NCBI GenBank assembly: GCA_963664375.1
Contig: OY761449.1
Coordinates: 1,746,337 to 1,810,336, forward strand
DNA: 64,000 nucleotides
Source of the DNA: Dehalococcoidia bacterium
GTDB lineage: Bacteria; Chloroflexota; Dehalococcoidia; Lucifugimonadales; UBA3495
Direction of reading: 5' to 3'
The notes beneath the pieces were generated by a model that saw only the letters and a list, made by a program, of their open reading frames with translations, was not told where the DNA came from and made no database searches. A program made the position numbers and the translations under genes. Positions 37,508 to 63,624 of this stretch are shown here, in pieces. The stretch's first letter is position 1, and each line of letters begins with the position of its first letter.

Positions 37508-38208
37508 CAAGTAGTTCCCTCCCCTTCCATATTTCTCCCCTCCTCCGGGGGGGAATACAAGGGGGCGGCGGGTTGGGAGCGTATCCCCAAGTGCGGCGTA
37601 GTTCCGAGGCTGGTGAACGGCACCGCGCCGAGGGCCTTCAGGTCCATCGCCAGCCCGGCCACCAGCAGGTAGGCCCGGTCGGCGCGCGCCGCGAACATCT
37701 GGTTGACTCGACCCTGCACGTCCCGGAACCTCCGGCCCAGCGGCGAAGCGGGCACCACGCTCAGCCCCACTTCGTTGCTTACTACTATCCACGTCGCCGA
37801 TGACTGCTCGTAGACGTCTAACAACTCACCGGCGGCGGCAAGGATTTCTTGTTCGGCGCCCGGATCGCCCTCTCTGGCGAGAAGCCGGTTGCTGATCCAG
37901 AGAGTGAGACAGTCCAGCAGGCACGTGTCGTACTCCTGCCCCCATTCGACAGGCTCATGGTGAGCAGGTCGAACCAGCAAGCGGGAACCCAGAGCAGACG
38001 GGAGTGCCAGCGGCTCCTCCAGCGTGTCCCAGCCCGCGGGGCGCTGGCGGCGATGATGGTCGATACGCAGCCGCATTTCGTCATCCAGCGCCTCGGCGGT
38101 GGCGACGTAGAGCACACGCCCTCCTTCCTTGGCGAGTTGCTCGGCGAAGGAACTCTTGCCGGAGCGTGCGCCGCCCAGAACGAATATGAGCTGTTTAGGC
38201 AATGGCAT
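37507..38208 (-). CDS. cobU: Adenosylcobinamide kinase/phosphate guanylyltransferase
   Basis: GGARSGKSSFAE, LLDCLTLW, SNEVG, FRDVQGRVNQ. Confidence 0.95.
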   Translation of the reverse strand: MPLPKQLIFVLGGARSGKSSFAEQLAKEGGRVLYVATAEALDDEMRLRIDHHRRQRPAGWDTLEEPLALPSALGSRLLVRPAHHEPVEWGQEYDTCLLDCLTLWISNRLLAREGDPGAEQEILAAAGELLDVYEQSSATWIVVSNEVGLSVVPASPLGRRFRDVQGRVNQMFAARADRAYLLVAGLAMDLKALGAVPFTSLGTTPHLGIRSQPAAPLYSPPEEGRNMEGEGTT

Positions 38209-39301
38209 CCCCTACGGCGAGGACGCCTTTCAGGGCCTCGGCCAGCCGCCGGTTGTCGTCCATCGTCCTGACCCCGACCCTGATGTATTCGGGCAGCCCG
38301 AAGGAGGCGCAGTCCCTGACGCAGATGCGGTGCTGCAAGAGGAGGGCCTCCCTGACCTCGCGGGCGCATCCTACGTTGAGCAGCAGGAAATTCGCCGCAG
38401 CGGGAGGGCATTCTACGCCAAGGTCCCGGGCTACCCCCATCAGGTATTCCTTTCCCTGTTCAACTACTCTACGGCCCCTTGTTACGTGCTCGCCATCGGC
38501 CAGGGCAGCGATTCCGGCGGCCTGGGCGGCGGCGTTGACGCTCCAACTGTACTGGAAACGCCGCACCCGTCTCACCGTGTCCTCGCCCGCCAGCAGGTAC
38601 CCCAGCCGCAGGCCGGTGAGGGCGTAGTCCTTGGTCATGGAACGGAGCAGCGCCACGTTGCCCAGCGACAACAGCGACATGGAATCCCAACTTTCGTTCA
38701 CGAACGGTAGGTAGGCTTCGTCCAGGACGAGCAAGCCAACTCCCCGCAATGCCTCAGCTACTCCGCGGATCTCGTCTTCGCCCAGGTAGACTCCGGTCGG
38801 ATTGTTGGGATTGCAGAGGAATACGATGGCCGGGGCGTGACCGGCGATGCAGTCGAGGGCCAATGGAATGTCCCACCGGAATCGCGCCTCGGACTGTCCG
38901 GCGCACTGCGGCAAGAGCGAAACCGGCTCCACTCCCTCGGTGCGGCAAGCGGCCGCGTATTCGCCGAAGGTCGGCGCGAAAATCAGGGCCGTATCGTCTG
39001 GTGTCAGGAAAGCCCGCGCCAGCAGGTGGATAAGCTCGGTGGAGCCGTTACCGGCAAGAACGTTGCCAGGGTCTACATCCAGGCTGTTGCCTATGGCCCG
39101 CCGCAGGTCGAGACAGTCCGGGTCGGGGTAGGCGGCCAGTTTCACTTGCCGCGCTGCCTCCAGCGCAACCGGCGACGGCCCCAGAGGGTTGATGCTGGCG
39201 CTGAAATCCGTGACCTCATCAGGACGCAGGCCCAACGATTCCAGCTCTGCGTAGTTCAGGCCGCCGTGGACGGGCCGCTCGTTTCCGCTCTGCAAGTTCA
39301 C
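38195..39301 (-). CDS. cobD: Threonine-phosphate decarboxylase (CobD-like PLP enzyme)
   Basis: HGG..DFSASINPLG, CNPNNPTG, RSMTKDYALTGLRLGY. Confidence 0.88.
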   Translation of the reverse strand: MNLQSGNERPVHGGLNYAELESLGLRPDEVTDFSASINPLGPSPVALEAARQVKLAAYPDPDCLDLRRAIGNSLDVDPGNVLAGNGSTELIHLLARAFLTPDDTALIFAPTFGEYAAACRTEGVEPVSLLPQCAGQSEARFRWDIPLALDCIAGHAPAIVFLCNPNNPTGVYLGEDEIRGVAEALRGVGLLVLDEAYLPFVNESWDSMSLLSLGNVALLRSMTKDYALTGLRLGYLLAGEDTVRRVRRFQYSWSVNAAAQAAGIAALADGEHVTRGRRVVEQGKEYLMGVARDLGVECPPAAANFLLLNVGCAREVREALLLQHRICVRDCASFGLPEYIRVGVRTMDDNRRLAEALKGVLAVGDAIA

Positions 39302-39306
39302 TCGAA

Positions 39307-40287
39307 TTAACCGGCGAAAAGCCCGCGCAGGGCCAGTGCTCCGACCGCCAGCGGCAACCCGATTACGGCAACCACGACGGCCACCCTGACCGACGCCCCG
39401 ATGTGCGACGGCCCGGGTTCAGCAAGGCCGTCCCCGATGCGGTAGTGGCCCGCCTTTTCCAGCGCCACGCCCAGGATGCCAGCCATTGCGCCGATGGTCC
39501 AGCCGGCGTTGGGGCTGGCCGTCAACCGCCGCCCACGCCACAGCCAGCGCAGCCCTCTTGAGCCTGTCGAAAGACAGGCGGGTATCCGGCACAAGCCGCC
39601 TGCCATAATGATCAACCCGGCGCTGAGGCGCGCCGGGGCCAGGTTCATCAAATCGTCCAGCCGCGCCGACGCCTTGCCAAGATATTCGTACTTTCCGCGA
39701 TAGCCAATCATGCTGTCCAACGTGTTCACCGCCCGGTAGGCAAAGGCCCCGGGCAGCCCCAGCAGCGCAAAAGCCAGCCAAGGCCCGATGTAACTGTCGG
39801 TGGTATTTTCCGCCACCGACTCAATGGCCGCAGCCGACGCGAGGGACCGGTCCAGCGATGTCGCGTCGCGGCTGACCAAGCTGCGCAGGCCGTCCCGCGC
39901 ATCGCCGATGCTCCCCTCGTCCATGGCATCGCGGACGCCAATCGCCGCCTGCCCCAACCCTTTTACGGCAAAGGTCGTATTCAAAAGCACCGCCACACCT
40001 GCCACGTACACTACCGGGCCCAGCTCCCGCAACCCGTTGGCCGCCCCCCACGCCGCTCCGCCGAACACGGCAGGCACGGCCAAGGCCATCGCCGCCCCCC
40101 AGACCAGCGCAAGCCACTTCGAATCGGGAGACGGCCCAACCCTCTCCAGCCACGAGACCACCTTGCCCATCCAGACCACCGGATGCACGGCACTGGGCAA
40201 TTCCCGCAGCGCCAGATCCAGTACCAGCGCCAGCGCCAGCGCTCCCGCGTCAAGATACCACTCTCCGGGAAATAAGCGCCACTCCAT
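39307..40287 (-). CDS. cbiB: Adenosylcobinamide-phosphate synthase
   Basis: HPVVWMG, LVSRD, ESVAENTTD, YRAVNTLDSMIGY, SPNAGW. Confidence 0.93.
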   Translation of the reverse strand: MEWRLFPGEWYLDAGALALALVLDLALRELPSAVHPVVWMGKVVSWLERVGPSPDSKWLALVWGAAMALAVPAVFGGAAWGAANGLRELGPVVYVAGVAVLLNTTFAVKGLGQAAIGVRDAMDEGSIGDARDGLRSLVSRDATSLDRSLASAAAIESVAENTTDSYIGPWLAFALLGLPGAFAYRAVNTLDSMIGYRGKYEYLGKASARLDDLMNLAPARLSAGLIIMAGGLCRIPACLSTGSRGLRWLWRGRRLTASPNAGWTIGAMAGILGVALEKAGHYRIGDGLAEPGPSHIGASVRVAVVVAVIGLPLAVGALALRGLFAG

Positions 40288-40304
40288 TTTGAGCGGTCAG
40301 CGCC

Positions 40305-41120
40305 CTACCAGGCCCATTGATGGATGGGCCGCAGGAAATTTTCGGACACGGCGTATGCCAGGATGGCCGCAAGTATCAGTACCATTGCCTCCGCAGCCTC
40401 ATTGACCGCTCCGTATACGTCGCCGGTTACTCCGCCGAGCAACCGAGACGTCCACTTTGCCAAAGCAATCGCCACCAACGTCGCAATCGCCAGCAGGGCC
40501 AGCCCGCCGGGCCCGGCCAGCGCGACCGTCGCGGCCACGGCCACCGCCAGCCCGCCGAGCAACTGCCAGCGCGCGCCCGACGGCTGGAATGGCACTCCGA
40601 TGCCCTGTCGTCTGGCGTAGGGAAAGAATTCCAGTACCAACAGCATCCCCCATCGGGACAGGCAGGGAAACAGCAGCAGAATCCAGAAACGTCCTGCCGT
40701 CGGCAGTGCCATGATAGCAGCAACTTTCAGCAGGAGCAGGCTCACCGCTCCAACAACGGCGAAGGCGCCCACGTGGGAGTCCCGCAGAATCGCCAGCCGC
40801 CGCTCTTGGTCGAAGCCGCCGAACAGGGCGTCGCAGCAATCCATAAACCCGTCGAGATGGAGGGCCCGGGTGAGAACGGCCAGGGCTACCACCAGAATGG
40901 ACGCGGACAGTACAGAAGGAAACTCGCGGTGTTCCTCCGTAAAGAGGGGATAGCCCCACTGCATCAGGAGGTCGAGACAGGCAAGGATTAGCCCCAACAA
41001 TAGCCCGACGGTGGGGAACCAGCCCCTTGCCGACGCGAGACCTCCGGCATCCCGCGGAGCGACCGGCAGAATCGTCAGGAATCCCAAGGCCGCCCTCATT
41101 CCAGGTAAGGGTCCGTTCAC
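40305..41120 (-). CDS. cobS: Adenosylcobinamide-GDP ribazoletransferase
   Basis: FLTILP, LHLDGFMDCCD, LRDSHVGAFA, GGVTGDVYGA. Confidence 0.93.
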   Translation of the reverse strand: MNGPLPGMRAALGFLTILPVAPRDAGGLASARGWFPTVGLLLGLILACLDLLMQWGYPLFTEEHREFPSVLSASILVVALAVLTRALHLDGFMDCCDALFGGFDQERRLAILRDSHVGAFAVVGAVSLLLLKVAAIMALPTAGRFWILLLFPCLSRWGMLLVLEFFPYARRQGIGVPFQPSGARWQLLGGLAVAVAATVALAGPGGLALLAIATLVAIALAKWTSRLLGGVTGDVYGAVNEAAEAMVLILAAILAYAVSENFLRPIHQWAW

Positions 41121-42208
41121 GCGCCCTGGTCGTCCTCCGGCTCCCTGTCCGACACGCCCGCCTCGGCGAATGTCGCCATTTCGGACAGGGTGGCCGCAGC
41201 CGCCTCGATGATCGGCATTGCCAAGGCCGCACCCGTACCCTCGCCTAGCCGCATGCCCAGGTCGAACAGCGGCTCCAGTTCCAGGGCGGACAGGGCGGCG
41301 CGGTGGCCGCGCTCGGCAGAAACGTGGGAGCCTAGCATGAATTCCCGGGACGCGGGACACACGGCGTTGGCGACCAGGGCGGCGGCGCTGGAAATGAACC
41401 CGTCAACTATTACCGGGCGACGCATCATGGCGGCCCCGATTATCGCCCCCGCAAGGACGCCTATCTCGAATCCGCCCACTTTGGACAGCAGGCCAACACC
41501 GTCGGAGGGGTCGGGCGAGTTGACATCCAGAGCTTGGCGCACCACCCCGGCCTTGTGCCGTAACTCGTCGGGGTTGCGTCCGGTACCCTCGCCTGTGGTC
41601 TCATGGGTATCCAAATGGGTAACCGCGGCCGTGATCGCGCTGGAGGCGGTGGTGTTACCGATACCCATATCGCCCGTAGCCAGCAGGTCTACGCCCGACT
41701 CAATCACCTCAACCGCCAGGTTAATCCCCGCCTCCAGGCACTGCACCGCCTGCTCGCGGGACATTGCCGGGCCTTGGCTGATGTCGCCCGTGCCCCTGCC
41801 GATCTTGAGCATGCGAAGTTCCGGGTTGTCGGGTAGGTCGGACGCAACGCCAGCGTCAACTATGACCTGCCGTATTCCCAGACGGCGGCACATTACGGTG
41901 ATGGCCGCGCCGCCAGCCAGGAAATTCAGCACCATCTGCGCCGTGACTGCCTGTGGGTAAGCGGTGACTCCCTGGGCGACCACGCCGTGGTCTCCGGCGG
42001 CGATGATGACCGCCTTCCCGCCGATGGCCGGTCTCTCGGTGCCGAAAATTCCGGCCAGCCTGATGGACAAGTCCTCCAGGCGGCCAAGCGCGCCCGGCGG
42101 CTTGGTCAGGTTTCCCTGCCTGGCCTCGGCGCGGGCCATCGCGGCGGCGTCCAGTGCGCTGGCACGTTCGAGAGCCTGAGCCAGTGTGACCTTATCGCTT
42201 GACACCAC
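41117..42208 (-). CDS. cobT: Nicotinate-nucleotide--dimethylbenzimidazole phosphoribosyltransferase
   Basis: LTKPPGALGRLE, GDHGV, GDMGIGNTT, GGFEI, MRLGEGTGA. Confidence 0.95.
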   Translation of the reverse strand: MVSSDKVTLAQALERASALDAAAMARAEARQGNLTKPPGALGRLEDLSIRLAGIFGTERPAIGGKAVIIAAGDHGVVAQGVTAYPQAVTAQMVLNFLAGGAAITVMCRRLGIRQVIVDAGVASDLPDNPELRMLKIGRGTGDISQGPAMSREQAVQCLEAGINLAVEVIESGVDLLATGDMGIGNTTASSAITAAVTHLDTHETTGEGTGRNPDELRHKAGVVRQALDVNSPDPSDGVGLLSKVGGFEIGVLAGAIIGAAMMRRPVIVDGFISSAAALVANAVCPASREFMLGSHVSAERGHRAALSALELEPLFDLGMRLGEGTGAALAMPIIEAAAATLSEMATFAEAGVSDREPEDDQGA

Positions 42209-42268
42209 GATGGCCCTCCCTGTGTGATTGCGGTGTAGGGGCGCACAGCCGTGCGCCCCTACCATGTA

Positions 42269-43096
42269 CTATTGCGCCGACGGCCCGATCAGCCACACTT
42301 GGGGCGATCCCGTGGCCGGGTCGATCTGCACCGCCGTCTCGACGCCGAAGGCGCTCCGTAGATTCTGCTGGGTCAAGACATCGACTGGCTTCCCTTCGGC
42401 TGTCACGCGCCCGTCGTACAGCAGGGTCAGCCGGTCGCAGTAGCGGCTCGCCAGGGACACGTCGTGGAGCGCTACCACCACTGCCACCTGCCTGGTGGCT
42501 ACCTCCTCCCTCAGCGTCTCCATGATCGAGAGACGGTGGCGAAGGTCCAGGCTGGCCGACGGCTCGTCCAGCAGGATGACGTTGGCCTGTTGCGCCAGCG
42601 CCCGCGCCAGGATGACCCGCTGGCGTTCGCCGCCCGATAGCCGGTCGAGCTGCCGGTCCTCGAATTGCGCCGTATCCGTGCGGGCCATGGCGCTGAGCGC
42701 AATCTCCCGGTCTTGTCTGCCTTCCAACTCGAAACGGCCAAGGTGCGCGTACCGGCCCATCAGAACCGTCTCAATGGCCGTGAAGGGATGCGTCGCGTCG
42801 TGCTGCGGCATGAACGCAATGCGGCGGGCCCGCTGGCCTGAATTCAGGCCCTTCAACGGCAAATCCTCAATCCGCACGTCGCCCGATTCCGGGCGGAGCA
42901 GCCCCGCGAGCACCCGGAGCAGCGTGCTCTTCCCGGCGCCGTTGGGGCCAATGAGGCCAGCGACTTCGCCGGGGCGCGCCTCGAAGGACACCGACTTCAG
43001 GATGGAGTTGCCGCCGAGCCGGACCGACACGTCCCTTGCCGACAGGGCGGCCGCGCTTGCGCTTATAGCCTGCACTGAGCTGGTCGAAAGGGTCAA
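42269..43096 (-). CDS. Cobalamin/siderophore ABC transporter ATP-binding protein (BtuD-like)
   Basis: GPNGAGKST, LSGGERQR, LLDEP, LHD; start uncertain. Confidence 0.9.
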   Translation of the reverse strand: MTLSTSSVQAISASAAALSARDVSVRLGGNSILKSVSFEARPGEVAGLIGPNGAGKSTLLRVLAGLLRPESGDVRIEDLPLKGLNSGQRARRIAFMPQHDATHPFTAIETVLMGRYAHLGRFELEGRQDREIALSAMARTDTAQFEDRQLDRLSGGERQRVILARALAQQANVILLDEPSASLDLRHRLSIMETLREEVATRQVAVVVALHDVSLASRYCDRLTLLYDGRVTAEGKPVDVLTQQNLRSAFGVETAVQIDPATGSPQVWLIGPSAQ

Positions 43097-43100
43097 CTGC

Positions 43101-44351
43101 TCACTCCCCGCGGTATGGCTCGAAATCCGCAAACGTAACGTCGGCAAAAAGGTCCGGGAACAGAATTTCGGCGGTCGATTCGATGCCGCGCACGTTCCAG
43201 TGGGACAGCGTGATGTGCTTGGGGGCGTCCATGATGTGGATTTCGCCATTGGCTATGGCGGGCACCGCAGTCAGCACCGGGTCGTTCAGCAGGTCGTCCC
43301 GCAGCGTGGTTGCGCCCTCGCCGCCCTGGGGGATGATGATGAATTCAGGGTTCATCGCGGCGATGGACTCCGTGCTTATCGGCTTGAACCCGTCGATGCC
43401 GTCGCGGGCCGCCGCGTTGACGCCGCCAGCGGACTCGATGATGCCGCTGCCGGTGGTACCGCCCCCGGCGACGCTGATTGAGTCTGACCACCGGGAAATC
43501 GAAATCACCGCGGGCCTGCCTGCATCTCCCATGGCCGGAACCCTCTCGGCGATAAGCGCGAGCCTGTTCTCGATTTCCGCGGCCAGCTCCAGCGCCCGGT
43601 CTTCGACTCCGAGCATGTATCCGAGGAGCAGGATATTGGGTATGTTGCCCTCGGCGGAACTTTCCAGGGCGGGCCTCACGACCGGCACCCCGGCCTCCTT
43701 GACCAGCCCAACTATGTCCGCGTCGGTAAAGGCGGACACGATGAACAGGTCCGGCTCGGCTGCCAGAACGTTCTCGGCGCCCTTCTCGAAGACCGCGTAT
43801 TCAGGGGCAACATTGGCCACGTTGGAATACGCGGCGTTGCTGGCGAACTTGCCCAAGGCGGCTACCCGCTCGGGCGGCACCAGGGCAATCAGCATCTCGT
43901 CGTGCCCCAGGGAGTACGTCAGGATGCGTTGCGGCGGCGCATCCAGCGTGACCACGCCCTCAAGGGTTTCGACATCACGCGGCCAGCCGGTGTTGGACGG
44001 GTCGACGATGCCGGGCACCGCCGGATACGGTTCCGGCGTGGGTTCGGGGGTTGCCGTCGGTTCAGGGGCGCTGGTTGGCTGAGGCGCCTCCGTCGGGTCT
44101 GCTGCCGACGTCGGCGCAGCAACTGTGGGCGCCGCCGTCGGTACGGCAGTGGGCTCCGGGGCTGCCGTTGGCTCCTCTCGCGTCTGCGGCTCAGGTGTGT
44201 TCACGGGAGGTGGCGTCGCCGTAGCTTGCGGAGCCGTGACCGGGGCCTCGGTAGCCGGGTCTTCGCCACCGCAGGCGACAACCATCAGCATGGACATCGC
44301 TATTATGACCAGCAGGGCTGGCAGATACCTGGTAATGCCGTTGTTCCTCAT
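43101..44351 (-). CDS. ABC transporter substrate-binding lipoprotein (BtuF-like) with Pro/Thr-rich linker
   Basis: VVAC lipobox; PQRI..; E.IAAMNPE; riboswitch-led operon. Confidence 0.85.
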   Translation of the reverse strand: MRNNGITRYLPALLVIIAMSMLMVVACGGEDPATEAPVTAPQATATPPPVNTPEPQTREEPTAAPEPTAVPTAAPTVAAPTSAADPTEAPQPTSAPEPTATPEPTPEPYPAVPGIVDPSNTGWPRDVETLEGVVTLDAPPQRILTYSLGHDEMLIALVPPERVAALGKFASNAAYSNVANVAPEYAVFEKGAENVLAAEPDLFIVSAFTDADIVGLVKEAGVPVVRPALESSAEGNIPNILLLGYMLGVEDRALELAAEIENRLALIAERVPAMGDAGRPAVISISRWSDSISVAGGGTTGSGIIESAGGVNAAARDGIDGFKPISTESIAAMNPEFIIIPQGGEGATTLRDDLLNDPVLTAVPAIANGEIHIMDAPKHITLSHWNVRGIESTAEILFPDLFADVTFADFEPYRGE

Positions 44352-44491
44352 ATCAGTTTCAGTTTCCTAGTCATCTCAGGCGTGTGTTTTCGGATCGTTC
44401 CACGCTCCCGGGCCTGGTTCCGGGAGCGAGTTCTGCGCCGCCATACCGCTCCTTGGCGGCGGCGCATTCTGAGCTTGTCGCAGGGCCGGGC

Positions 44492-45694: not shown

Positions 45695-45809
45695 AATAAA
45701 ATCCCCGCCGCTTCCTTCGCGACAGGGACTGCTCCAAGCTGACGACCGGGCGCCGTTCGGGTTCCGGTCTGCGTCTGAGCACTCCGAGGACGAAGAGCGA
45801 CCGCTCAGA

Positions 45810-46014
45810 TCAGCATCGGCAGGTCTCCTGGCTCCCGGATCATCGCCCCTACCCCATTCAAGTAGGCCCGCGCCTTCCCGCCCCGAATTCCGCCGGGGCA
45901 GTGGCTTAATGCGGGTGGCTCCCCGGTTACAGTGGCGCCTCCGCAGCGGCTTCTAACCGCTTTCCCTTATGCGCCCGTCCCGGTCTTGAAACCCGGCAAG
46001 GCGCGCCGTGCTGA
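45810..46014 (-). promoter_or_regulatory. Cobalamin riboswitch upstream of btu-cob operon
   Basis: Minus strand: AAGGGAAAGCGG, GCCACTGTAA, GCCACTG..GGGAAGG, GAGCCAGGAGACCTGCC B12 box. Confidence 0.93.
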
Positions 46015-46035
46015 TTTGGCCTTGATGTCGGCGGG

Positions 46036-46064
46036 ATGATAGCAAGGGACGGGCTGGCTGTCAA
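46036..46064 (-). promoter_or_regulatory. Sigma70 promoter for btu-cob operon
   Basis: TTGACA-N17-TATCAT with TG extension. Confidence 0.65.
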
Positions 46065-46079
46065 TCTTCGCCATTGCAG

Positions 46080-46269
46080 GGTATTCTCAACGTGTGTTGG
46101 TATTCCCATGTAGGGGCGCACTTCCGAGCACGTCGAGGAACGTGCGCCCTGGCCCCCGGTTCCAGTCACAATTCTCTCCTGCGCAGACACGGGCGCACGG
46201 CTGTGCGCCCCAACGCGGCGGGGACAAGCAGACAAATCGCGTCCAATACCAACACACGTTGAGAATGCC
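46080..46269. mobile_element. Family C composite MITE-like element, copy 3, between the divergent cob promoters
   Basis: Same termini, REP palindromes and spacer. Confidence 0.8.
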
Positions 46270-46302
46270 CATTGTAGCGACGGATGACGAGCGCCGATTC
46301 TA

Positions 46303-46331
46303 TTGACAGGCTGGCAGTCTCAATTTACACT
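46303..46331 (+). promoter_or_regulatory. Sigma70 promoter for cbiE-cobN operon
   Basis: TTGACA-N17-TACACT. Confidence 0.65.
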
Positions 46332-46387
46332 TGCCGCGCGTTACGGCCCGATTTCGGGCTGTGGGCGACCATTAAAAATCGAATCAG

Positions 46388-46549
46388 CCACCCGGTGATT
46401 TTCTACTTGCGCCGCCCATACCGGCCCCGGAAGGCGGCGCGATTCCGGTACGTCAGGGCAAGGCGGTGCGAGTCCGCCACGGTTGCGCCACTGTGATCGG
46501 GTTTCCAACAGTCGCGGGAACCCGTAAGTCAGAAAACCTGCCCGGGTGG
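46388..46549 (+). promoter_or_regulatory. Cobalamin riboswitch (short variant) upstream of cbiE-cobN operon
   Basis: AGGGCAAGGCGGTGCGAGTCCGCC, GCCACTGTGA, AAGTCAGAAAACCTGCC; CCACCCGG/CCGGGTGG closing helix. Confidence 0.85.
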
Positions 46550-46650
46550 AGGTGCTCTGCTTCTGCGCGTGACAGAGAGACCCGCAGCGCCGCCCGTACC
46601 GACCTTCAGGACGCGGCGCTATCAATCTCGCCTGACCCGTAATGGGATCG

Positions 46651-46686
46651 TCCCCGGCAGCAGTAGAGCCGGGGATTTTTTATTTC
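46651..46686 (+). terminator. Terminator hairpin in riboswitch leader
   Basis: TCCCCGGC..GCCGGGGA then TTTTTTATTT. Confidence 0.65.
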
Positions 46687-46763
46687 CTGAAACGTCATTC
46701 CGGCGAAAGCGGGAATCAAGAGAGGTCTTTCCCATTCCAGACTCCAACGAAAATAACGGCGCC

Positions 46764-47483
46764 ATGATAACGGTCGTCGCGGTTGGCCCCGGCAACCCTG
46801 ACATGCTTACGTCGCAGGGGCGGCAAGCACTAAAGGACGCCGATCTCGTGCTGGGTTTTAACACCGTGCTGAACGTGGTGCGCCCCCTGCTGGACCACGC
46901 CGAGGTCTGCCCCATGTCTTACCGGGACCAGGAGCAGGTGCTGGAATACGCCGGGGAGCAGGTCAAGCAGGGCAGGAAGTGCGTGGTCTGCTGCTGGGGC
47001 GACCTGAACGTCTCGGCGCGGGAACTCCTGGAGCGGGTGCTGCGCCGGGCCGACAGCGTCCGGCTGGTTCCCGGTATCAGTTCCGTCCAGGTGGCAATGG
47101 CCCGCACGGGGATTTTCCTCGAGGATTCGATATTCCTCACCTTGCACAAGCGGGCCGCCATTCGACAAGCTCATGGTGAGCCTGTCGAACCACTGGAGGA
47201 ACTGGCCCATTACGTCAACGAGGGCAGGCGGCACGTGATCCTGTTGCCGCGGCCCTTCGACCTGATGCCCGCGGGCATTGCCAGCGGTCTCCTGGAGCTG
47301 GGTGTCCGCGATAACGCCGATGTCCGGGTATACCAGCGGCTGACCTTCGACGACGAGCAGTGCTGGGAAGGAACCCTCGGCGAGTGCAGCAGGATCACCG
47401 ATGAGTTCAGCGACCTTTCAATTATGGTCTTCCTGACCGGCGAAGCCCCTGTACAATCCCCTCTCCCGCCGGGAGAGAGTTAG
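46764..47483 (+). CDS. Tetrapyrrole methylase, CbiE/CobL N-terminal-like
   Basis: VAVGPGNPDMLT, WGD, VPGISSVQVA, QRLTFDDE. Confidence 0.82.
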   Translation: MITVVAVGPGNPDMLTSQGRQALKDADLVLGFNTVLNVVRPLLDHAEVCPMSYRDQEQVLEYAGEQVKQGRKCVVCCWGDLNVSARELLERVLRRADSVRLVPGISSVQVAMARTGIFLEDSIFLTLHKRAAIRQAHGEPVEPLEELAHYVNEGRRHVILLPRPFDLMPAGIASGLLELGVRDNADVRVYQRLTFDDEQCWEGTLGECSRITDEFSDLSIMVFLTGEAPVQSPLPPGES

Positions 47484-47510
47484 GGTGAGGGCGTAATCCG
47501 CTAGGGCAAT

Positions 47511-50500
47511 ATGCAACAGAAGTCGATCCTTTTCATCACCACCGCAGATACGGACATCCTGACGGCCGACCGGGCGGTAGCCGCGTTGCCGCCGGGATTC
47601 CCGCGGGTCGTTGCGCTGAACCCGTCCGCGCAGCGAGGCGAGGGCGCGGACATCGTGTCGCTGGCCGGTGCCGCTGGCGTGGTCGTGCTGCGGCTGCTGG
47701 GCGGCAAGCGGGCCATGCCCGACAGTTTCGATGCGCTGGTCAGGCACTGCCGCAGCGAGGGCATCCCGCTCATTGCCTGTCCGGGCCACCAGGAATGGGA
47801 CGAAGACCTGATTACAGCCTGCACCGCCCCGGTGGCAGAGGTCGATACGGTCTTCTCCTACCTGATGCAAGGCGGTGTCCAGAATTTCCAGAACTTGTTC
47901 CTGTTCCTGAGCGACGCCTATTTCGGAACTGAACACGGCCACGAGGCCCCGGCGCCGCTGCCGTGGGAGGGCATCTACCATCCTGACTACCCGGATGGCA
48001 CGGATGTCGAGACTTACGTCGCCCAACATTTCCGGCCCGCTCAGGGTGAGCATCCTGAGCTTGTCGAAGGACGGCCCCCGTCCATCGGCATACTGTTCTA
48101 CCGCGCCCACTGGATGAGCGGCAACCTGCTCCCCATCGACGCGCTCATACGCAGCCTGGAGGCCAAGGGCGCCAACGTGCTGCCGGTATACGCCTTCAGC
48201 CTGAAGCACAGCCCGGAGGGCGACGGCGTTGCCAACCGGGCCTTCACCGAGTACCTGGCGGCACCCGATGGCACGCCCCGCGTCCACTGCATCATCAACA
48301 CCATGGGCATGTCCATGGGCGAGATAAGCCAAGAGGGAGCGGCCACCATTCGGCGCGCTCCTGGCGAGTCCGGTGGAACCCCAGTGGACTACCTGGACAA
48401 CCTGAACGTGCCCATGGTGCAGGCCATCATCAGCACCGGCACCCAGGACGAGTGGCTGGACAGCGACCTCGGCCTCGGCCCCATCGACACCGCCATGAGC
48501 GTCGCTCTGCCGGAGTTCGACGGGCGGCTGATCTCGGTGCCCATATCGTTCAAGGAGGAAGCGAGCGCCGATTCCTCCGGGGGGCTTTCGGGCCGCCTGC
48601 AACGGTACGTGCCGCGGGATGACCGGGTGGAGCTGGTGGCGCGGCTGGCCATCAAGCAGGCCAACCTGGCCCTGAAGCCCAACCCGGAAAAGAAGATCGC
48701 CGTCATCCTCAGCAACTATCCCACCAAGGACGCCCGCATCGGCAACGCCGTGGGCCTGGACACGCCCAACTCCGCCGTCCTGGTGCTGAACGCGCTGAAG
48801 GACGCTGGCTACCAGGTTACGGACATTCCTGAGACCGGCGACGAGCTGGTCCACCGCATCATCGAGCGGTGCAGCAACGACCGCGACTCGCTGACCGAGG
48901 AGCAATTGCGGCTAGCCGCCGGGCATGTGTCGTCGAACCAATACAATCAATGGTTTTCCACTTTCCCGGACGACGTTGCAGAGGAGCTATCCCGGGACTG
49001 GGGCGAGCCGCCGGGTCAGGTATACAGAACCAACGGTTCTCTGGCCATCGCTGGCATTGACCTCGGCAACGTGTTCGTGGGACTCCAGCCGCCGCGCGGT
49101 TTCGGCGAGAATCCCATCGCCATCTACCACAGCCCCGACCTGGCGCCTACCCACCACTACATCGCCTACTACCGCTGGGTGCGCGACGTGTTCGGGGCCG
49201 ACGCCATCCTGCACCTTGGCAAGCACGGCACGCTGGAATGGCTGCCGGGCAAGGGCATCGGCCTGTCGCCGTCCTGCTACCCCGAAGTCGCCATGGACGA
49301 CGTGCCGCTGTTCTACCCGTTCATCATCAACGACCCCGGCGAGGGTTCCCAGGCCAAGCGCCGCGCCCACGCCACCATCGTCGACCATCTGATACCGGCG
49401 ATGACCACCGCCGACAGCTACGGCGACATCGCCCGCATCGAGCAGTTGATGGACGAGCATTACCAGTGCCAGACCCTCGACCCGTCCAAGCTGCCCCTGC
49501 TGGAGACCCAGATCTGGGAGATGGTGCAACAGGCTGAGTTGCACCGCGATTTGGGAATCGAGGCCCAGCCCGAGGATTTCGGCGAGTTCATCCTCGAAAT
49601 CGACGGCTATCTCTGCGAGCTGAAGGACGCCCAGATCAAGGACGGCCTGCACATCCTCGGCGATGCGCCGCAGGGCGAGCAACTGGTCGGGCTGCTCTGC
49701 GCCCTCACCCGCCTGGATATCAGCGGCATCCCCAGCCTGCGCCGCTCCGTCGCCGAGGCGCTGGGCTTCGACTACGCCGCCGTCACCAACGACTTGGGCC
49801 AACCGTTGAGTCCTTGCGCCATTGCGTCATTGCGTCAATACAGCGCCGCCATTCGGCAAGCTCACGATGAGGCGGCCGTCGAACCACGCACAAACGGCGA
49901 CGCCATCGAATACATCGAACTGATGTGCCGCCAACTGTACCGCGAGATGCTGAACGACGGTTTTGGCCCTGAATCGGCTGCACCCGCCGTGCATAGCGTC
50001 CTCGGAAAGCCGGACGGCCAAACGCAGTCGGTGCTGGCTTACGTCGCTGAGGTTGTCTACCCGGCATTGATGCGGACGCCTGACGAAATCGGCAACCTGC
50101 TCCGCGGCCTCGAGGGCCGGTACGTGCCGCCGGGGCCCAGCGGCGCGCCCACCCGGGGCATGGCCAACATCCTGCCCACTGGCCGCAACTTCTATTCCGT
50201 AGACCCCAAGACCATTCCGTCACCCGCAGCATGGGAGACCGGCAAGCAACTGGCCCAGTCGTTGCTGGACAAGTACCTTGAGGAGGAAGGCGCGTACCCG
50301 GAGATGGTGGGCCTGGTGGTCTGGGGAACGTCGGCCATGCGCACCCACGGCGACGACATCGCCCAGATCCTGCACCTCCTCGGCGTCCGGCCCAAGTGGC
50401 AGGCCGAGAGCCGCCGCGTGCAGGGCCTGGAGGTCATCCCACTGGAGGAGTTGGGCCGACCTCGCATTGACGTTACCGTGCGCATCAGCGGGTTCTTCCG

Positions 50501-51434
50501 CGATGCCTTCCCCAACCTGATCAACCTGCTGGATCAGGGCGTGGAAATGGTGGCCGCCCTGGACGAGTCGCCCGCCGACAACTATGTCGTCAAGCACCTG
50601 TCCGAAGACCTGTCCAGGGCCGAGGAACGCCCTCACCCTAACCCTCTCGCGGAAGGAGAGGGAACTTATGATGAGCGCAGGAGCCAGAGCCTTTACCGCA
50701 TATTCGGCAGCAAGCCCGGCACCTACGGGGCGGGCATCCTGCCGGTGCTGGACGAGCGGAACTGGGAGACCGTGCAGGACCTGGCCGAGGTCTACACCGC
50801 CTGGGGCGGCTACGCCTACACCCAGCAGGATCACGGCGTGAACGCCCGCCCGCAGTTCCGGCGCCGGTTCGGCCAGATTGTCGTCGCCGCCAAGAACCAG
50901 GACACCCGCGAACACGACATCTTCGATAGCGACGACTACATGCAATATCACGGCGGCATGATTGCCACAGTCCGCGCCCTGACCGGGCGCAGCCCGCGCC
51001 AGTTCTTCGGCGACAGCTCCGACCCGTCGCGGGCCAGGAACCGGGACTTGCAGGACGAGGCCCGCCGGGTGTTCCGCACCCGCGTGGTCAACCCCAAGTG
51101 GATCGACTCAATGAAACGCCACGGGTACAAGGGCGCTTTCGAGCTGGCCGCCACCGTCGATTACATGTTCGGCTACGACGCCACGGCGCAGGTCATCGAG
51201 GACTGGATGTACGAGGACGTTACCGAGAGCTACGTCCTTGACCCGGAAACGCAGCAGTTTTTCCAGCAATCCAACCCCTGGGCTCTCAAGGGCATCGTAG
51301 AGCGATTGCTGGAGGCTATCGAACGGGGTCTGTGGGAAGACCCATCCCCCGAAATGCGCGAGAAACTGCAACAACTCTACCTGGAACTGGAAGCCGACCT
51401 GGAAGCCCGGCAGGAGGGCGTCAGCGGTCGGTAG
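47511..51434 (+). CDS. cobN: Cobaltochelatase subunit CobN
   Basis: VALPEFDG, VGLDTP, HLGKHGTLEWLPGK, LPTGRNFY, RISGFFRDAFP, VVNPKWI..HGYKGA. Confidence 0.95.
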   Translation: MQQKSILFITTADTDILTADRAVAALPPGFPRVVALNPSAQRGEGADIVSLAGAAGVVVLRLLGGKRAMPDSFDALVRHCRSEGIPLIACPGHQEWDEDLITACTAPVAEVDTVFSYLMQGGVQNFQNLFLFLSDAYFGTEHGHEAPAPLPWEGIYHPDYPDGTDVETYVAQHFRPAQGEHPELVEGRPPSIGILFYRAHWMSGNLLPIDALIRSLEAKGANVLPVYAFSLKHSPEGDGVANRAFTEYLAAPDGTPRVHCIINTMGMSMGEISQEGAATIRRAPGESGGTPVDYLDNLNVPMVQAIISTGTQDEWLDSDLGLGPIDTAMSVALPEFDGRLISVPISFKEEASADSSGGLSGRLQRYVPRDDRVELVARLAIKQANLALKPNPEKKIAVILSNYPTKDARIGNAVGLDTPNSAVLVLNALKDAGYQVTDIPETGDELVHRIIERCSNDRDSLTEEQLRLAAGHVSSNQYNQWFSTFPDDVAEELSRDWGEPPGQVYRTNGSLAIAGIDLGNVFVGLQPPRGFGENPIAIYHSPDLAPTHHYIAYYRWVRDVFGADAILHLGKHGTLEWLPGKGIGLSPSCYPEVAMDDVPLFYPFIINDPGEGSQAKRRAHATIVDHLIPAMTTADSYGDIARIEQLMDEHYQCQTLDPSKLPLLETQIWEMVQQAELHRDLGIEAQPEDFGEFILEIDGYLCELKDAQIKDGLHILGDAPQGEQLVGLLCALTRLDISGIPSLRRSVAEALGFDYAAVTNDLGQPLSPCAIASLRQYSAAIRQAHDEAAVEPRTNGDAIEYIELMCRQLYREMLNDGFGPESAAPAVHSVLGKPDGQTQSVLAYVAEVVYPALMRTPDEIGNLLRGLEGRYVPPGPSGAPTRGMANILPTGRNFYSVDPKTIPSPAAWETGKQLAQSLLDKYLEEEGAYPEMVGLVVWGTSAMRTHGDDIAQILHLLGVRPKWQAESRRVQGLEVIPLEELGRPRIDVTVRISGFFRDAFPNLINLLDQGVEMVAALDESPADNYVVKHLSEDLSRAEERPHPNPLAEGEGTYDERRSQSLYRIFGSKPGTYGAGILPVLDERNWETVQDLAEVYTAWGGYAYTQQDHGVNARPQFRRRFGQIVVAAKNQDTREHDIFDSDDYMQYHGGMIATVRALTGRSPRQFFGDSSDPSRARNRDLQDEARRVFRTRVVNPKWIDSMKRHGYKGAFELAATVDYMFGYDATAQVIEDWMYEDVTESYVLDPETQQFFQQSNPWALKGIVERLLEAIERGLWEDPSPEMREKLQQLYLELEADLEARQEGVSGR

Positions 51435-51573
51435 TGACGTAGTAGGGGCAACCCTTGTGGTTGCCCTGGTGCCAAGCCGTCCGCAAATACTCAGGGCGCC
51501 CACAAGGGACGCCCCTACGAAGGGAAAGACGACTATTGCTCGCTGAACGCGGGCAGGCTGATGGAGTCCGACA

Positions 51574-51999
51574 ATGGAAATAGCGATGGAGCTGCTGGAG
51601 GAACTGACCGCGGACGAGTCCATGATGTGGGTCGTAGGCGGCGGTTCCGTTGTCAGCGAGAACAATTCCAAGGGAATCCAGAAACCCGAACGGCACAACC
51701 AGTCGATAACGGTCGAGGCGGAGAACTGGCACTTTCACATATCGCTCAACGACGTGGCGGCCATCCAGTTCGTCGAGACCAAGACCCACGGGGAGCGGCT
51801 CAGCTACTACGTGCGTTTCTCCGGGCACGAAGAGCAAACGCTGTTGCGCAGCTATTTCCCCAATCCGTTCCTCGACGAAAACTACAAGCCAACGCCGCTC
51901 CAGCCCGACCGGCTCAAGACGTTCACCGATATGCGAGACAGATACGTGGGCAGGGACGGGATCGAATTCATACACTACATCCCGCCGTCCAAGGACTAG
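51574..51999 (+). CDS. ChuX/HutX-like tetrapyrrole-binding protein
   Basis: WHFHISLNDVAAIQFVE...SYYVRF...LLRSYF resembles HutX H.H....I..I.FV..S..V.F. Confidence 0.6.
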   Translation: MEIAMELLEELTADESMMWVVGGGSVVSENNSKGIQKPERHNQSITVEAENWHFHISLNDVAAIQFVETKTHGERLSYYVRFSGHEEQTLLRSYFPNPFLDENYKPTPLQPDRLKTFTDMRDRYVGRDGIEFIHYIPPSKD

Positions 52000-52095
52000 A
52001 CTCAAGACCCTTGGACATTGGAGTTGCTGGCACACAACATTTCACCCCTACCCCAACCCTCCTCTTGAAGGGAGAGGGAGAATAAGGAGGATTTT

Positions 52096-52302
52096 ATGGC
52101 AGGTATAATCGCGGGTAACATCGGACAGGAGAGACTGTCCAGGCTGGCGCCATGGTTCCTGTTGGCCGTCGTCGTACTGTACTTCGTCGGTTACGTGGAC
52201 GGCACAGTGCATACGGCAGCCTTCGGCGGCAGCAGCGCCGTTCTCGGCGCGGTACACGAGTTCTTCCACCACGCCAGGCACATTGCACTTATGTGCCACT
52301 AG
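52096..52302 (+). CDS. cbtB: Cobalt transporter subunit CbtB-like
   Basis: One TM then HEFFHHARH...CH. Confidence 0.85.
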   Translation: MAGIIAGNIGQERLSRLAPWFLLAVVVLYFVGYVDGTVHTAAFGGSSAVLGAVHEFFHHARHIALMCH

Positions 52303-52425
52303 GGCAGCCTGGCAGATACAGGTTGGCGTCCATTCCGGGAGAGGTGACTTCCTCTCCCGGAGGACACTGAATGGCTTGTATATCACTTGGAGTAATCTGA
52401 TTCCTAATGAGGTAGGGAGCATGCG

Positions 52426-53199
52426 ATGAAAAGGCTGCTATTGACCTCCGTGATAGTCGGTATAGTTGCCGGCCTTCTTGTCGGCGGGTTCTACAACCTG
52501 TTCCAAGTGCCCGTGATGGAGCGGGCCATCGCCCTTGAGGAAGAGCGCGCCGCATCGGTTACGCCTGCGGGCGCGGAGGAGGAAGAGGAAGGCATTCCGG
52601 TCTCCTTGGGCGTGCAGCGTATTGGCATGGTGTTCGGCACCGCCATATACGGTGCTATTCTGGGCCTGTTCTTCTCCGTCGGATTTGTGCTGCTGCACCG
52701 GGCCGCTCCCGGTTGGCCCGTGGTGTGGGTAGCGATCACCGTCGGCGCACTGGGTTTCTGGAGCCTTTCGCTGTTCCCGTTCATCAAGTACCCTCTGAAT
52801 CCACCGGGAGTTGGCGACGAGGCCACACTTCTGGCGCGGCAGTTTGGCCAGACCTTGTTTATGCTCATTTCCGCGGCCGCCATCGGCGTGGCTTTCGACG
52901 CCATTCGCCGCATAAACCAGAACTACGCTGAGTTCTCCACGCGGTGCGCCTGGTATGCCGGAGTAGCGGGCATTTATGCCATACTGGCCCTGGTCATGGT
53001 ATTCGCGTTCCCGGGGAACCCTGACCCTGTGCCCGTCCCCATTGACCTGCTGGAGCTATTCCGTGCCTTGACCATGGCCGGCCAGTTCCTGATTTGGGCC
53101 ATTATGGCCGTCGGCGTAACCCTCGCCTTGCTTTGGCATCAACGGTCGCAGGCCGTTCGAACCTCGGCGCCCGTCCCCGTAACCGGCCTCGCCCGGTAG
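52426..53199 (+). CDS. cbtA: Cobalt transporter subunit CbtA-like
   Basis: P.MERAIALEE, PFIKYPLNPPGVG, LLELFR; 5 TM. Confidence 0.85.
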   Translation: MKRLLLTSVIVGIVAGLLVGGFYNLFQVPVMERAIALEEERAASVTPAGAEEEEEGIPVSLGVQRIGMVFGTAIYGAILGLFFSVGFVLLHRAAPGWPVVWVAITVGALGFWSLSLFPFIKYPLNPPGVGDEATLLARQFGQTLFMLISAAAIGVAFDAIRRINQNYAEFSTRCAWYAGVAGIYAILALVMVFAFPGNPDPVPVPIDLLELFRALTMAGQFLIWAIMAVGVTLALLWHQRSQAVRTSAPVPVTGLAR

Positions 53200-53229
53200 T
53201 CCAACTCGCCATCGCCGAAGGGAAAGCGC

Positions 53230-55422
53230 ATGACCGTCAGCCGAACACAAAACCGCTCTGAGCCGCGCTTTCCCTTTACCGCCATCGTCGGGCAGACGGC
53301 GATGAAGCGGGCGTTGATCCTCAACGCCATCAACACCCGCATTGGCGGCGTGCTCATCCGCGGCAAAAAGGGCACCGCCAAGTCTACCGCCGTCCGCTCC
53401 CTTGCCGCGTTGCTGCCAGAGGTGGACGTGGTGCGCGGATGCCCGTACAGTTGCCACCCCGATAGCCCTGAGCCTCTATGCCCCTGGTGCGAGACACGCG
53501 CCGCGGACGATGCTCCGGCGGTAACGCGGCAGGTGCGCATCGTTGACCTGCCAGTGGGCGCGACCGAAGACCGGCTGGTCGGCTCGCTGGACATTGAGCA
53601 GGCCATACGGAGCGGCAGCCGCAGCTTCGAACCGGGTCTCATCGCCGCCACCCACCGGGGCATCCTGTACGTGGACGAGGTCAACCTGCTCAACGACCAC
53701 CTGGTCGACGTGCTGCTGGACGCCGCCGCCATGGGCCGCAACTACGTGGAGCGCGAGGGCATCTCGGTCAGCCACGCCGCCGAGTTCATCCTGGTCGGCA
53801 CCATGAACCCGGAGGAGGGCGACCTGCGCCCGCAACTGCTGGACCGGTTCGGCCTGGCGGTGGAGGTGGACAGCGCCTTCACGCCCGAGGAACGCCGGGA
53901 AGTGGTCAAGCGCCGCATCGCCTACGAGAGCGATCCTTACGGATTCATTGACCGTTGGCAAGACGCCGAGGCAGAGGAGCGGGAACGAATCCTGCGCAGC
54001 CGGCAACTGCTGGAGCAGGTGAACGTATCCGACGACATCCTCGAGCTCATCACCGACATCTGCGCCGAGTACCAGGTGGATGGCCTGCGGGCCGACATCG
54101 TGATGTACAAAACAGCCAGCACCATCGCCGCCTACGAGGGCCGCGAGCACGTGTTGCCCGAGGACGTTCGGGAAGCGGCCGAGATGGCCCTGCTGCACCG
54201 GCAGCGCCGCCAGCCCTTCCAGCAGCCGCACCTGGTCACCGAGCAACTGGACTCGATGATCGACGAGTTCCAGAACCGCCCGCAAGACCGGGAACCCCGC
54301 GATCAGGACCAGTCGCAGTCTGAGGAGCAGGACGACGGAGATCCTGACTCACCTGACCAGGACGAACAGCCGCCGGAACCGCCCGGCGATTCCGGCCCCC
54401 AGGATCAGCACTTCGAGGTGGGCAACCCGTTCTCGGTACGCTCCCTGCAAGTCAAGCCGCCTGACCACCGGGCGCGTCCCTCCGGCGGCCGCCGCGCCCG
54501 CACCGTCAGCGGCACCCCCTCGGGCCGGTACGTCGGCGCTACCGTGCCACAGGAAAAGGCGTCCGACCTCGCTCTCGACGCGACGCTCAGGGCAGCCGCG
54601 CCGCACCAGTTGCAGCGGCGTTCTCACCCCCACCCTAACCCTCCCCCTGAGGGGGAGGGAACAAATGATGTGCTCCATCGAAGGGAGGGAACTAATGACA
54701 TCCCGGCGTTTCTCGTCGAACCGTGGGACGTGCGGGAGAAGGTGCGGGAGACCAAGACCGGCAGCCTGATCCTGTTCGTCGTTGACGCCAGCGGCTCCAT
54801 GGGCGCACAGCGCCGGATGGTCGCCGTCAAGGGCGCCATCCTGTCCCTGCTGCTGGACGCCTACCAGCGGCGCGACCGGGTGGGGCTGATCGCCTTCCGC
54901 GGCGCCGGGGCGCAGGTGCTTCTCCCTCCCACATCCAGCGTGGACTTGGCCCACGCGATGCTACAGGAGATGCCTACCGGCGGACGGACGCCCCTGAGCC
55001 GTGGCCTGTTGCTGGCTATGGAGGTCATCGAGGCGGAAAAGCAGAAAGACCGGAACGTCCTGCCTCTGCTGGTAGTGCTGTCCGACGGAAGGGCCAACGT
55101 GGCCATGGGCAGCGGCGAGCCCACTCCCGGCCCGGCGGCTCCAGCGGGCTCGGGACTGCCGCTGGCGGAGGCGCGGGCCATGGCGGCGGCCATCAGGGAG
55201 CAGAAAATATCGGCGGTGGTGATTGATACGGAAACGGACTTCCTGCGGCTGGGGCTGGCTGCCACCATCGCCGAGGAAATGGGCGCGCCCTGCCTGAAGC
55301 TGGAGGAACTGCACGCAGACGGCCTGGCCGACGCGGTGCGGCTCCAGATGGCTGCCCCGGAGACATCCCCGCTGACGCCCGGCGAGATACAGGGATTGCT
55401 GGAGCAGATCAAGCTGCAATAG
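53230..55422 (+). CDS. Chelatase ATPase subunit, ChlI/ChlD-like AAA+ fused to vWA
   Basis: FPFTAIVGQ, GKKGTAKST, YVDEVNLL, MNPEEG; Pro/acidic linker; DASGSMG MIDAS. Confidence 0.93.
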   Translation: MTVSRTQNRSEPRFPFTAIVGQTAMKRALILNAINTRIGGVLIRGKKGTAKSTAVRSLAALLPEVDVVRGCPYSCHPDSPEPLCPWCETRAADDAPAVTRQVRIVDLPVGATEDRLVGSLDIEQAIRSGSRSFEPGLIAATHRGILYVDEVNLLNDHLVDVLLDAAAMGRNYVEREGISVSHAAEFILVGTMNPEEGDLRPQLLDRFGLAVEVDSAFTPEERREVVKRRIAYESDPYGFIDRWQDAEAEERERILRSRQLLEQVNVSDDILELITDICAEYQVDGLRADIVMYKTASTIAAYEGREHVLPEDVREAAEMALLHRQRRQPFQQPHLVTEQLDSMIDEFQNRPQDREPRDQDQSQSEEQDDGDPDSPDQDEQPPEPPGDSGPQDQHFEVGNPFSVRSLQVKPPDHRARPSGGRRARTVSGTPSGRYVGATVPQEKASDLALDATLRAAAPHQLQRRSHPHPNPPPEGEGTNDVLHRREGTNDIPAFLVEPWDVREKVRETKTGSLILFVVDASGSMGAQRRMVAVKGAILSLLLDAYQRRDRVGLIAFRGAGAQVLLPPTSSVDLAHAMLQEMPTGGRTPLSRGLLLAMEVIEAEKQKDRNVLPLLVVLSDGRANVAMGSGEPTPGPAAPAGSGLPLAEARAMAAAIREQKISAVVIDTETDFLRLGLAATIAEEMGAPCLKLEELHADGLADAVRLQMAAPETSPLTPGEIQGLLEQIKLQ

Positions 55423-63160: not shown

Positions 63161-63624
63161 CTGGATGCGGAGCCAGTTCTCTCGCCACTACTCCAAAAGC
63201 GACCGTATCCAACCCAACACCTGCGCCGCCCATGAATCCAAGTGTTTGCTATCTCCCGCCCCACAACCAAAGGATAGAGAGTCACACCACGCCTGGGCGA
63301 ACCGTTTTAGCTACGGCGGTGGCACCCCTATCATAGCACGGACGGACACGCAGGCCGGTGGCGCGGATTGTGGGTACGGACGTCTGATGATGCGTGGGAT
63401 TTCACCCCCACCCTAACCCTCCCCCTGAGGGGGAGGGGATTTTTTCTCTGGGGGCGAAACGGGCGGCTGCGTGTCTGCTGCGTCTTGAAATGGCGGCGGC
63501 GGGGGAATAAAATTCAGGCCCAATCCGGCGGCTTGCCGTCAGCGTAGTACCGGCAGGACTGTTATGATGGAAGCAGAAATTTCCGGCCAGCGGGTCGGCA
63601 GATAGAGACGAATCGGGAGGTGCA

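Follow-up and report, generated by a model that had tools for sequence, protein, structure and literature searches.

Short, hairpin-forming dispersed repeats have very probably been copied into protein-coding DNA of a Dehalococcoidia bacterium and have survived there at sites that tolerate them, and they reach their highest density in a cluster of cobalamin (vitamin B12) genes. The cluster comprises two divergent operons, each with a cobalamin riboswitch ahead of it, and lies within the window analysed here, a stretch of 64,000 nucleotides (nt) covering positions 1,746,337-1,810,336 of the 3.91-Mb single-contig genome (G000); positions given without a prefix are those of the window. Two repeat families, D and A, are involved, both of them dispersed and mostly intergenic in this genome, and their coding copies stand in frame and without a stop codon in the genes for CobU, CbiB, a CbiE-like methylase, CobN and ChlI/D (Table 1). 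In orthologue alignments the encoded peptides are missing from all or nearly all other sequences (9 to 80 per gene), which identifies them as lineage-specific insertions. This is what the original prediction, made from the letters of the window, had proposed when it described several repeat families as a source of new peptides inside genes, and all sequences quoted there were recovered at their positions.

Lineage-specific inserts in the cobalamin genes

Family D was scored with an nhmmer profile built from 22 intergenic palindromic copies. The copy in the CbiE-like methylase has 0 mismatches over the 35-nt consensus and adds a net 7 amino acids (aa) that are missing in 11/11 genus orthologues. 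Among 29 readable Chloroflexota rows at this slot only the nearest relative (L253) carries an insert, and this is a different variant of D, with flanks and centre reading GGG/CCC/GGG vs CCA/TGG/CCA in G000; in some relatives the ancestral slot reads GATTCGACCAGCGAA, which is similar to the D ends. The cobU copy has 3 mismatches to the same consensus, and the 13-aa insert that results is found neither in 9/9 same-genus orthologues nor in 33/33 wider CobU homologues drawn from many phyla. In cbiB there is a half-site, weakly matched by the profile (E 0.02), whose 5-aa insert is absent from 10/10 orthologues.

CobN carries several inserts at once. At site 1, 77/80 orthologues have 6 residues vs 17 in G000, and the DNA (48051-48075) has 53 other matches in the genome by blastn-short; at site 2, 80/80 orthologues are 7 residues shorter; and at site 3, 65/80 orthologues have 23 residues vs 32 in G000. 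The D identity of site 3 comes from the nhmmer profile alone, as blastn-short with 49840-49895 returned no other match in the genome. The original prediction had assigned family D copies to cobU, cbiB, the cbiE-like gene and three places in cobN; the profile bears this out for cobU, cbiE and cobN sites 1 and 3 and weakly for cbiB, while for 48346-48380 (site 2) its score does not support the repeat origin assigned there. The tandem repeat that it placed in cobN was recovered beside site 3 (Table 1). The family A copy further downstream in cobN is common to a small clade (G011, G004, L229) and decayed in L173 and L179.

The ChlI/D gene contains a consensus family A copy and is 15 aa longer at this point than its three closest orthologues (L113-L115). 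Among 15 orthologues the A copy was found only in L116, which is more distant, and the slot had GGGGGAAC, similar to the 3' end of A. The 36-nt identity between this copy and an intergenic one, on which the original prediction had remarked, is exact and extends to many further copies (Table 1). Behind the A copy, at 54650-54710, comes a direct duplication whose two units (GGGAGGGAACAAATGAT / GGGAGGGAACTAATGAC, 15/17 identical) each encode EGTND; in L116 only one such unit accompanies the copy.

Repeats also extend protein ends. The C-terminal extension of CobU is missing in 9/9 genus orthologues and common only to the nearest relative, L032; as the original prediction had it, its DNA is repeat-like, 37534-37565 having 7 other genomic matches by blastn-short. 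The end of the CbiE-like protein is derived from family A; some orthologues have the corresponding tail, PLPPGE(S/G), and others lack it.

The inserts are predicted to occupy loop or linker positions compatible with the fold. In an AlphaFold2 model of CobU the insert forms coil at residues 78-94, between a helix and a strand, with a predicted local distance difference test (pLDDT) score of ~54 at residues 81-90 vs >85 in the flanks; in the CbiE-like model, residues 130-141 are coil between strand 122-127 and helix 143-153, with pLDDT <50. The tails are modelled with similarly low scores (CobU, pLDDT 52-63; residues 233-239 of the CbiE-like protein, <50). When CobN is aligned by phmmer to solved CobN chains, the interruptions fall exactly at sites 1 and 3. 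The expectation of surface loops that accompanied the original prediction thus finds agreement in the low-confidence coil of the CobU and CbiE inserts, the two inserts that the models cover.

The genes that carry the inserts are still under purifying selection, as judged from dN/dS values of 0.04-0.15 for eight cluster genes compared with two relatives, which indicate that the host genes are working; these values and the intact frames rule out pseudogenisation. Three CobN inserts, sites 1 and 3 included, are spanned with 0 or 1 differences by contigs of 4 runs (3 samples, 1 study), and the sample with the best match is possibly the source of the genome assembly; no RNA sample is among the listed sources of matching sequence. 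Together with the inserts common to relatives, these contigs rule out an assembly artefact. Among the contig joints listed, none skips an insert precisely; contigs drop rare variants, and this speaks neither for nor against insert-free alleles.

The same slots are filled differently in relatives. At CobN site 3 other lineages have other repeat-like peptides, and the CobN and ChlI/D slots of relatives hold D-like EPVEG, A-antisense SPSGGGLGWG and a KDFQ...PDSD family; the presence of different repeats in the same places argues that the slots are permissive. Such reuse points to a selection filter on position combined with repeated hits or conversion. Four relatives (L172, L173, L176 and L184) have at CobN site 3 a 15-aa-longer peptide of the type SGFKDFQDR...NPE.PDSDII, which looks like a further repeat family in translation.

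Table 1. Repeats, inserts and riboswitches of the cobalamin gene region, in window coordinates
Feature	Position	Strand	Evidence
CobU C-terminal extension (~25-30 aa) entering repeat-like DNA	37507..37600	-	orthologue comparison
Palindromic D copy in frame inside cobU, encoding roughly LVRPAHHEPVEWG	37941..37976	-	nhmmer E 1.2e-10
D half-site in a mini-hairpin with 7-bp stem, in frame inside cbiB (5-aa insert)	39556..39576	-	core with 1 mismatch; hairpin predicted
Cobalamin riboswitch ahead of the btu...cobU operon	45801..45993	-	Rfam RF00174, 78.6 bits
Cobalamin riboswitch ahead of the cbiE-like/cobN operon	46405..46559	+	Rfam RF00174, 41.8 bits
Palindromic D copy inside the CbiE-like methylase gene (AAIRQAHGEPVEP)	47156..47193	+	nhmmer E 3.5e-15
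Family A copy in which the CbiE-like gene ends (last ~9 codons and stop)	47454..47496	+	470 other genomic matches
cobN site 1, D stem-loop variant (QGEHPELVEG)	48038..48075	+	nhmmer (48038-48072) E 2e-3
cobN site 2, 7-aa lineage-specific insert	48344..48385	+	nhmmer (48344-48370) E 0.15, not significant
8-nt tandem (TTGCGTCA x4) in cobN beside site 3	49806..49837	+	Tandem Repeats Finder, period 8, 4.0 copies, 83% matches
cobN site 3, degenerate palindromic D copy (AAIRQAHDEAAVEP)	49847..49889	+	nhmmer E 1.8e-6
Family A (triplex-motif) copy inside cobN (RPHPNPLAEGEGT)	50624..50666	+	A core exact
Consensus family A copy and short direct duplication inside the ChlI/D gene	54621..54710	+	36-mer found exactly 121 times in the genome
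Intergenic family A copy identical to the ChlI/D 36-mer	63402..63437	+	sequence identity

The minus-strand operon encodes FecCD, a periplasmic binding protein, an ABC ATPase, CobT, CobS, CbiB, an aminotransferase and CobU, and the plus-strand operon a TP_methylase (the CbiE-like gene), CobN, CbtA and a ChlI/VWA fusion; CobU, CbiB, TP_methylase, CobN and the ChlI/VWA fusion are supported by Pfam. Genes for the genome-wide counts were taken from a custom codon-usage caller (3680 genes, 82% of the genome coding), and protein alignments were used in place of DNA alignments, which were patchy with blastn; repeat searches with default seeds miss the palindromes. The second riboswitch and the 304-aa CbiE-like open reading frame (ORF) share sequence in the 5' part of the latter, and because of this overlap, and in agreement with the gene call, the true start of the methylase is probably 46764. 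The upstream part of this ORF (46569-46763) contains a copy of a fourth repeat family at 46696-46716, and its translations in relatives are unalignable. The longest ORF for CobS and that for CobT have ~240 nt in common (40305-41360 and 41117-42265); Pfam matches to CobS start at residue 91, the gene caller puts the start at 40997, and the long ORF is probably an over-extension.

Families D and A across the genome

The 13-nt D core has 240 matches with at most 1 mismatch in the genome, 174 of them intergenic and 47 lying at least 150 nt inside genes, and the A core has 1251, of which 1157 are intergenic and 33 at least 150 nt inside genes. Per Mb, the density in coding DNA is ~6% (D) and ~0.6% (A) of that in intergenic DNA. 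In the window, at up to 2 mismatches, the D core has 11 matches vs 1.14 expected, a number that 0/100 shuffles reach.

Directly complementary bases (at least 3 bp) flank the 13-mer in 165/240 copies, compared with ~50 when partners are shuffled, the stems being of at least 6 types, and 28-29 of the 240 matches form a 13-3-13 palindrome. The complementary flanks indicate that the conserved core is the loop of a hairpin and that the palindrome consists of two such units with shared stems. Hairpins predicted for most of the coding copies have weak z-scores, -0.7 to -3.1. The exact palindrome, built in the same way, was also found in 19 stretches from further lineages, among them Novosphingobium, Nitrospirae, an actinobacterium and a Desulfocapsaceae metagenome-assembled genome (MAG). 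The core string was found on neither strand in the main texts of the open-access papers searched, and matches to FDKLR and LSLSK were unrelated; family D is an undescribed repeat present in several phyla. Two different Chloroflexota genomes (L316 and L317) carry the same D palindrome with flanks conserved on both sides, which gives the appearance of a coding insert that both share in an orthologous gene. We suggest tentatively, as a possibility that we hold to be doubtful, that D is a 13-nt motif (TTCGACAAGCTCA) kept across phyla, shown as the loop of hairpins with varying, covarying stems, and recognised and copied by some machinery, preferentially over short distances. If true, this would account for at least 4 palindromic in-gene copies within 28 kb in one terminal lineage, and for the differing stem variants in one slot among sister genomes.

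After merging of nearby matches, the coding copies amount to 74 events in 64 genes. A Pfam scan of 27 of these recipients assigned a family to 26, and the recipients include SecA, DnaE, valyl- and isoleucyl-tRNA synthetases (ValRS and IleRS, 2 copies each), Ffh, MutS2, GcvT, AddA, AddB, Lhr, restriction-modification enzymes, transporters and a polyketide synthase (PKS, 6 copies). The last is a 3126-aa type I enzyme (C1:3416643-3426023, L171) and the second-densest coding locus; its six D-core matches read PSTSSG, LRQAQDE, HPELVEG and FDKLRA, and the peptides probably lie in inter-domain linkers. The reading frames used show a strong bias to hydrophilic peptides rich in Pro, Gly, Glu and Ser: 19/31 coding copies of family A read HPNP(L/P)PEGEG, and for family D 19 read RQAHxE/HPELVE, 18 PSTSSG and 7 FDKL.

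Two further repeats are abundant in this genome. A GTAG-tagged repetitive extragenic palindromic (REP) family (GTAGGGGCGCAC...GTGCGCCCCTAC) has 478 core matches genome-wide, with copies in the window at 42235-42262, 12868-12955, 36391-36498 and 46110-46214, and is not among the coding copies described here. A 27-nt unit (GTTCCCCCGCACACGCGGGGATAGACC) occurs ~275 times in the k-mer table of the genome and resembles one or several large CRISPR arrays.

A regional excess and its explanations

In the B12 cluster, 15.3 kb contain 7 coding events where 0.41 would be expected (Poisson P 2.6e-7). The cluster ranks first among 18-kb windows of the genome, and a count of 7 is reached in 0/20,000 random placements. 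The hotspot is therefore real, and coding copies are far denser here, as had been claimed for the B12 operons. The link to B12 itself needs qualifying, given 64 recipient genes genome-wide and a nearby recipient outside the pathway: an alpha/beta hydrolase (Pfam; C1:1812259-1813167, L290:2260-3165), 2 kb past the window end, carries a palindromic D insert (AIRQVHGELAEP) of 7 aa that is missing in 13/13 same-genus orthologues. Palindromic D copies inside real genes are only four, in AddB, CobU, the methylase and this hydrolase, and 3/4 lie within 28 kb. Because the hydrolase, which is not a B12 gene, has the same palindrome, the hotspot looks regional and not B12-specific or functional. In keeping with the original prediction, which had seen no copies in recA, trpS and other genes, no core match lies deep in window genes outside the B12 cluster, a statement about all such genes in which the named ones were not individually identified. 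The GC skew of the genome is weak, noisy and uninformative as to the position of the region relative to the replication terminus.

The course of events that we favour begins with a hairpin-forming dispersed repeat being copied into coding DNA. Insertion would be roughly random, and selection would remove all copies other than those that landed in a tolerant loop, a linker or a protein end, with a length that is a multiple of three and in a frame without a stop. The excess over 28 kb would reflect a locally raised rate of insertion, of conversion or of both, atop the many permissive loops of CobN, and the peptides are most likely neutral passengers. The likeness of GATTCGACCAGCGAA in the cbiE slot and of GGGGGAAC in the chlID slot to repeat ends is no more than suggestive as to target-site duplication or microhomology.

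Several points weigh against this account. Insertion is read from indel patterns only, and no clear target-site duplication is seen at the cobU, cbiE and chlID junctions. No Y1/REP-associated tyrosine transposase (RAYT) was found, PF01797 giving 0 matches in G000 (94% complete), with 6/14 named genomes positive as a control; RAYT-driven REP transposition was rejected as a source of the copies on this ground. CobN site 2 is a real lineage-specific insert whose origin from a repeat is not demonstrable, blastn-short with 48336-48390 finding no other match in the genome. The chlID insert is common to G013 and missing from the closer relatives G011, G004 and G031, a distribution that needs loss, recombination or repeated insertion. 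Decay is uneven among the local D copies (0, 3 and 6 mismatches from the consensus, and more at cobN site 3), and a single burst of insertion is therefore unlikely. The census comes from a crude caller, several FDKL-frame matches in it are chance-like, and three events are in paralogues with one peptide; 74 therefore overcounts independent events, which makes the hotspot test conservative, not weaker.

For the regional excess, a possible though rather doubtful alternative is that differences in tolerance among proteins produce the hotspot on their own, insertion being no more frequent here than elsewhere. Variable surface loops are numerous in CobN and ChlI/D, and an insert would cost little in operons that are weakly expressed and repressed by a riboswitch; consistent with this, both operons have cobalamin riboswitches ahead of them, the CobNs of the genus collect 1-5 different repeat-derived inserts in the same loops, as does ChlI/D likewise, and the second-densest locus is the large PKS with its 6 D-derived linker peptides. 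A filter of this kind fits less well with the CobU, CbiB, CbiE and hydrolase inserts, which occur in G000 alone, or there and in its nearest relative, even though the same families are present in relatives, with the near confinement of the palindromic subtype in real genes to 28 kb (3/4), a small non-B12 hydrolase included, and with the ordinary dN/dS values of the cluster genes.

An origin of the region in a diverged strain, where inserts had built up for longer and from which recombination brought it in, would make the local excess a legacy of that strain; this is unlikely: the sharing of the chlID insert with G013 and not with the closer G011, G004 and G031 would fit, as would the uneven decay of the local copies, but synteny with relatives is conserved across the cluster and the identity levels of its genes are unremarkable. 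Recruitment of the inserts for a function, as hairpins in the mRNA or DNA of the operons (attenuation, RNase sites, pausing) or as new functional loops, a regulatory part for the mRNA hairpins having been raised in the original prediction, is very unlikely, for although hairpins are predicted with z <=-2.1 for 5/8 copies, complementary flanks keep the D core in a loop (165/240 vs ~50 in the control) and the exact palindrome in several other phyla points to some constraint on the motif, each insert is limited to one or few lineages, decays after insertion and is modelled as disordered, and unrelated repeats sit in the same slots of relatives.

Read as selfish repeats copied into coding DNA, the region would offer a clean natural case of non-coding repeats turning into protein sequence, with dated steps: a fresh consensus copy (CbiE-like), older decayed copies (CobN), slots reused by other families in sister genomes, and read-through tails. 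It would account for unusual inserts in CobN, CobU and ChlI/D of Dehalococcoidia MAGs, and for their differing lengths, without invoking errors, which is useful for annotation and for inferring B12 pathways, and the regional excess could help to show how such tiny elements move.

Relation to known intragenic repeats

The in-frame insertion of palindromic repeats is already a known kind of event. Rickettsia palindromic elements (RPEs), of ~150 bp, lie in frame in unrelated functional genes (Ogata et al., 2000, as summarised in PMC10969869) and resemble the present case, as they are described there, in being dispersed in-frame palindromes that encode fold-compatible peptides, with several families per genome. 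By the same description they differ in that an RPE of ~150 bp has a conserved ORF-like peptide, whereas the elements here span 15-45 nt (5-15 aa); and the host there is an obligate intracellular alphaproteobacterium, here an uncultured Dehalococcoidia lineage. Intragenic copies of enterobacterial repetitive intergenic consensus (ERIC) sequences and of Coxiella QMITE1 are likewise in-frame fusions of small mobile repeats with host genes (PMC10969869), and are set apart, by description, as longer elements of the miniature inverted-repeat transposable element type with terminal inverted repeats, in contrast to the short palindromes found here.

Closer in size are the intragenic REPs, GTAG/CGTC-tagged elements of 20-40 bp that are reported in genes for tRNA synthetases and DnaE and in others for replication and repair, where they probably lie in flexible linkers (Di Nocera et al., 2013, PMC3733652). 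The recipients are of a similar kind, including here DnaE, AddA/AddB, MutS2, Lhr, ValRS and IleRS. In contrast to these REPs, no GTAG/CGTC tag is visible by eye in the D consensus ends or in the listed A copies, and the genome has no Y1/RAYT transposase; the D strings do not occur in the text of PMC3733652, supplementary tables aside.

Family A matches the BoxC/TMECO intrastrand triplex motif, of which 23 E. coli copies have been treated relative to neighbouring ORFs (Holder et al., 2015, PMC4666352). It is built like the E. coli type A entries in Table 1 of PMC4666352, in which GGGTTAGGGTG-GGG comes after a CCCTC...GAGGG hairpin: read as the reverse complement of the 36-mer and set beside that table, it consists of a hairpin rich in pyrimidines and, after it, the G-rich third strand GGGTTAGGGTGxGGG. 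We therefore assign family A to the BoxC/TMECO repeats, the triplex itself being predicted from the motif. The words 'intragenic' and 'in-frame' are absent from the main text of PMC4666352, whose supplementary tables may list such copies; here, by contrast, there are ~1250 core matches, at least 31 of them read inside genes. The BoxC/TMECO triplex motif and an undescribed multi-phylum repeat would thereby join the elements that behave as coding inserts, and what sets the present case apart among these systems is the very short length of the elements, a triplex motif as coding insert, the reuse of slots and the regional excess.

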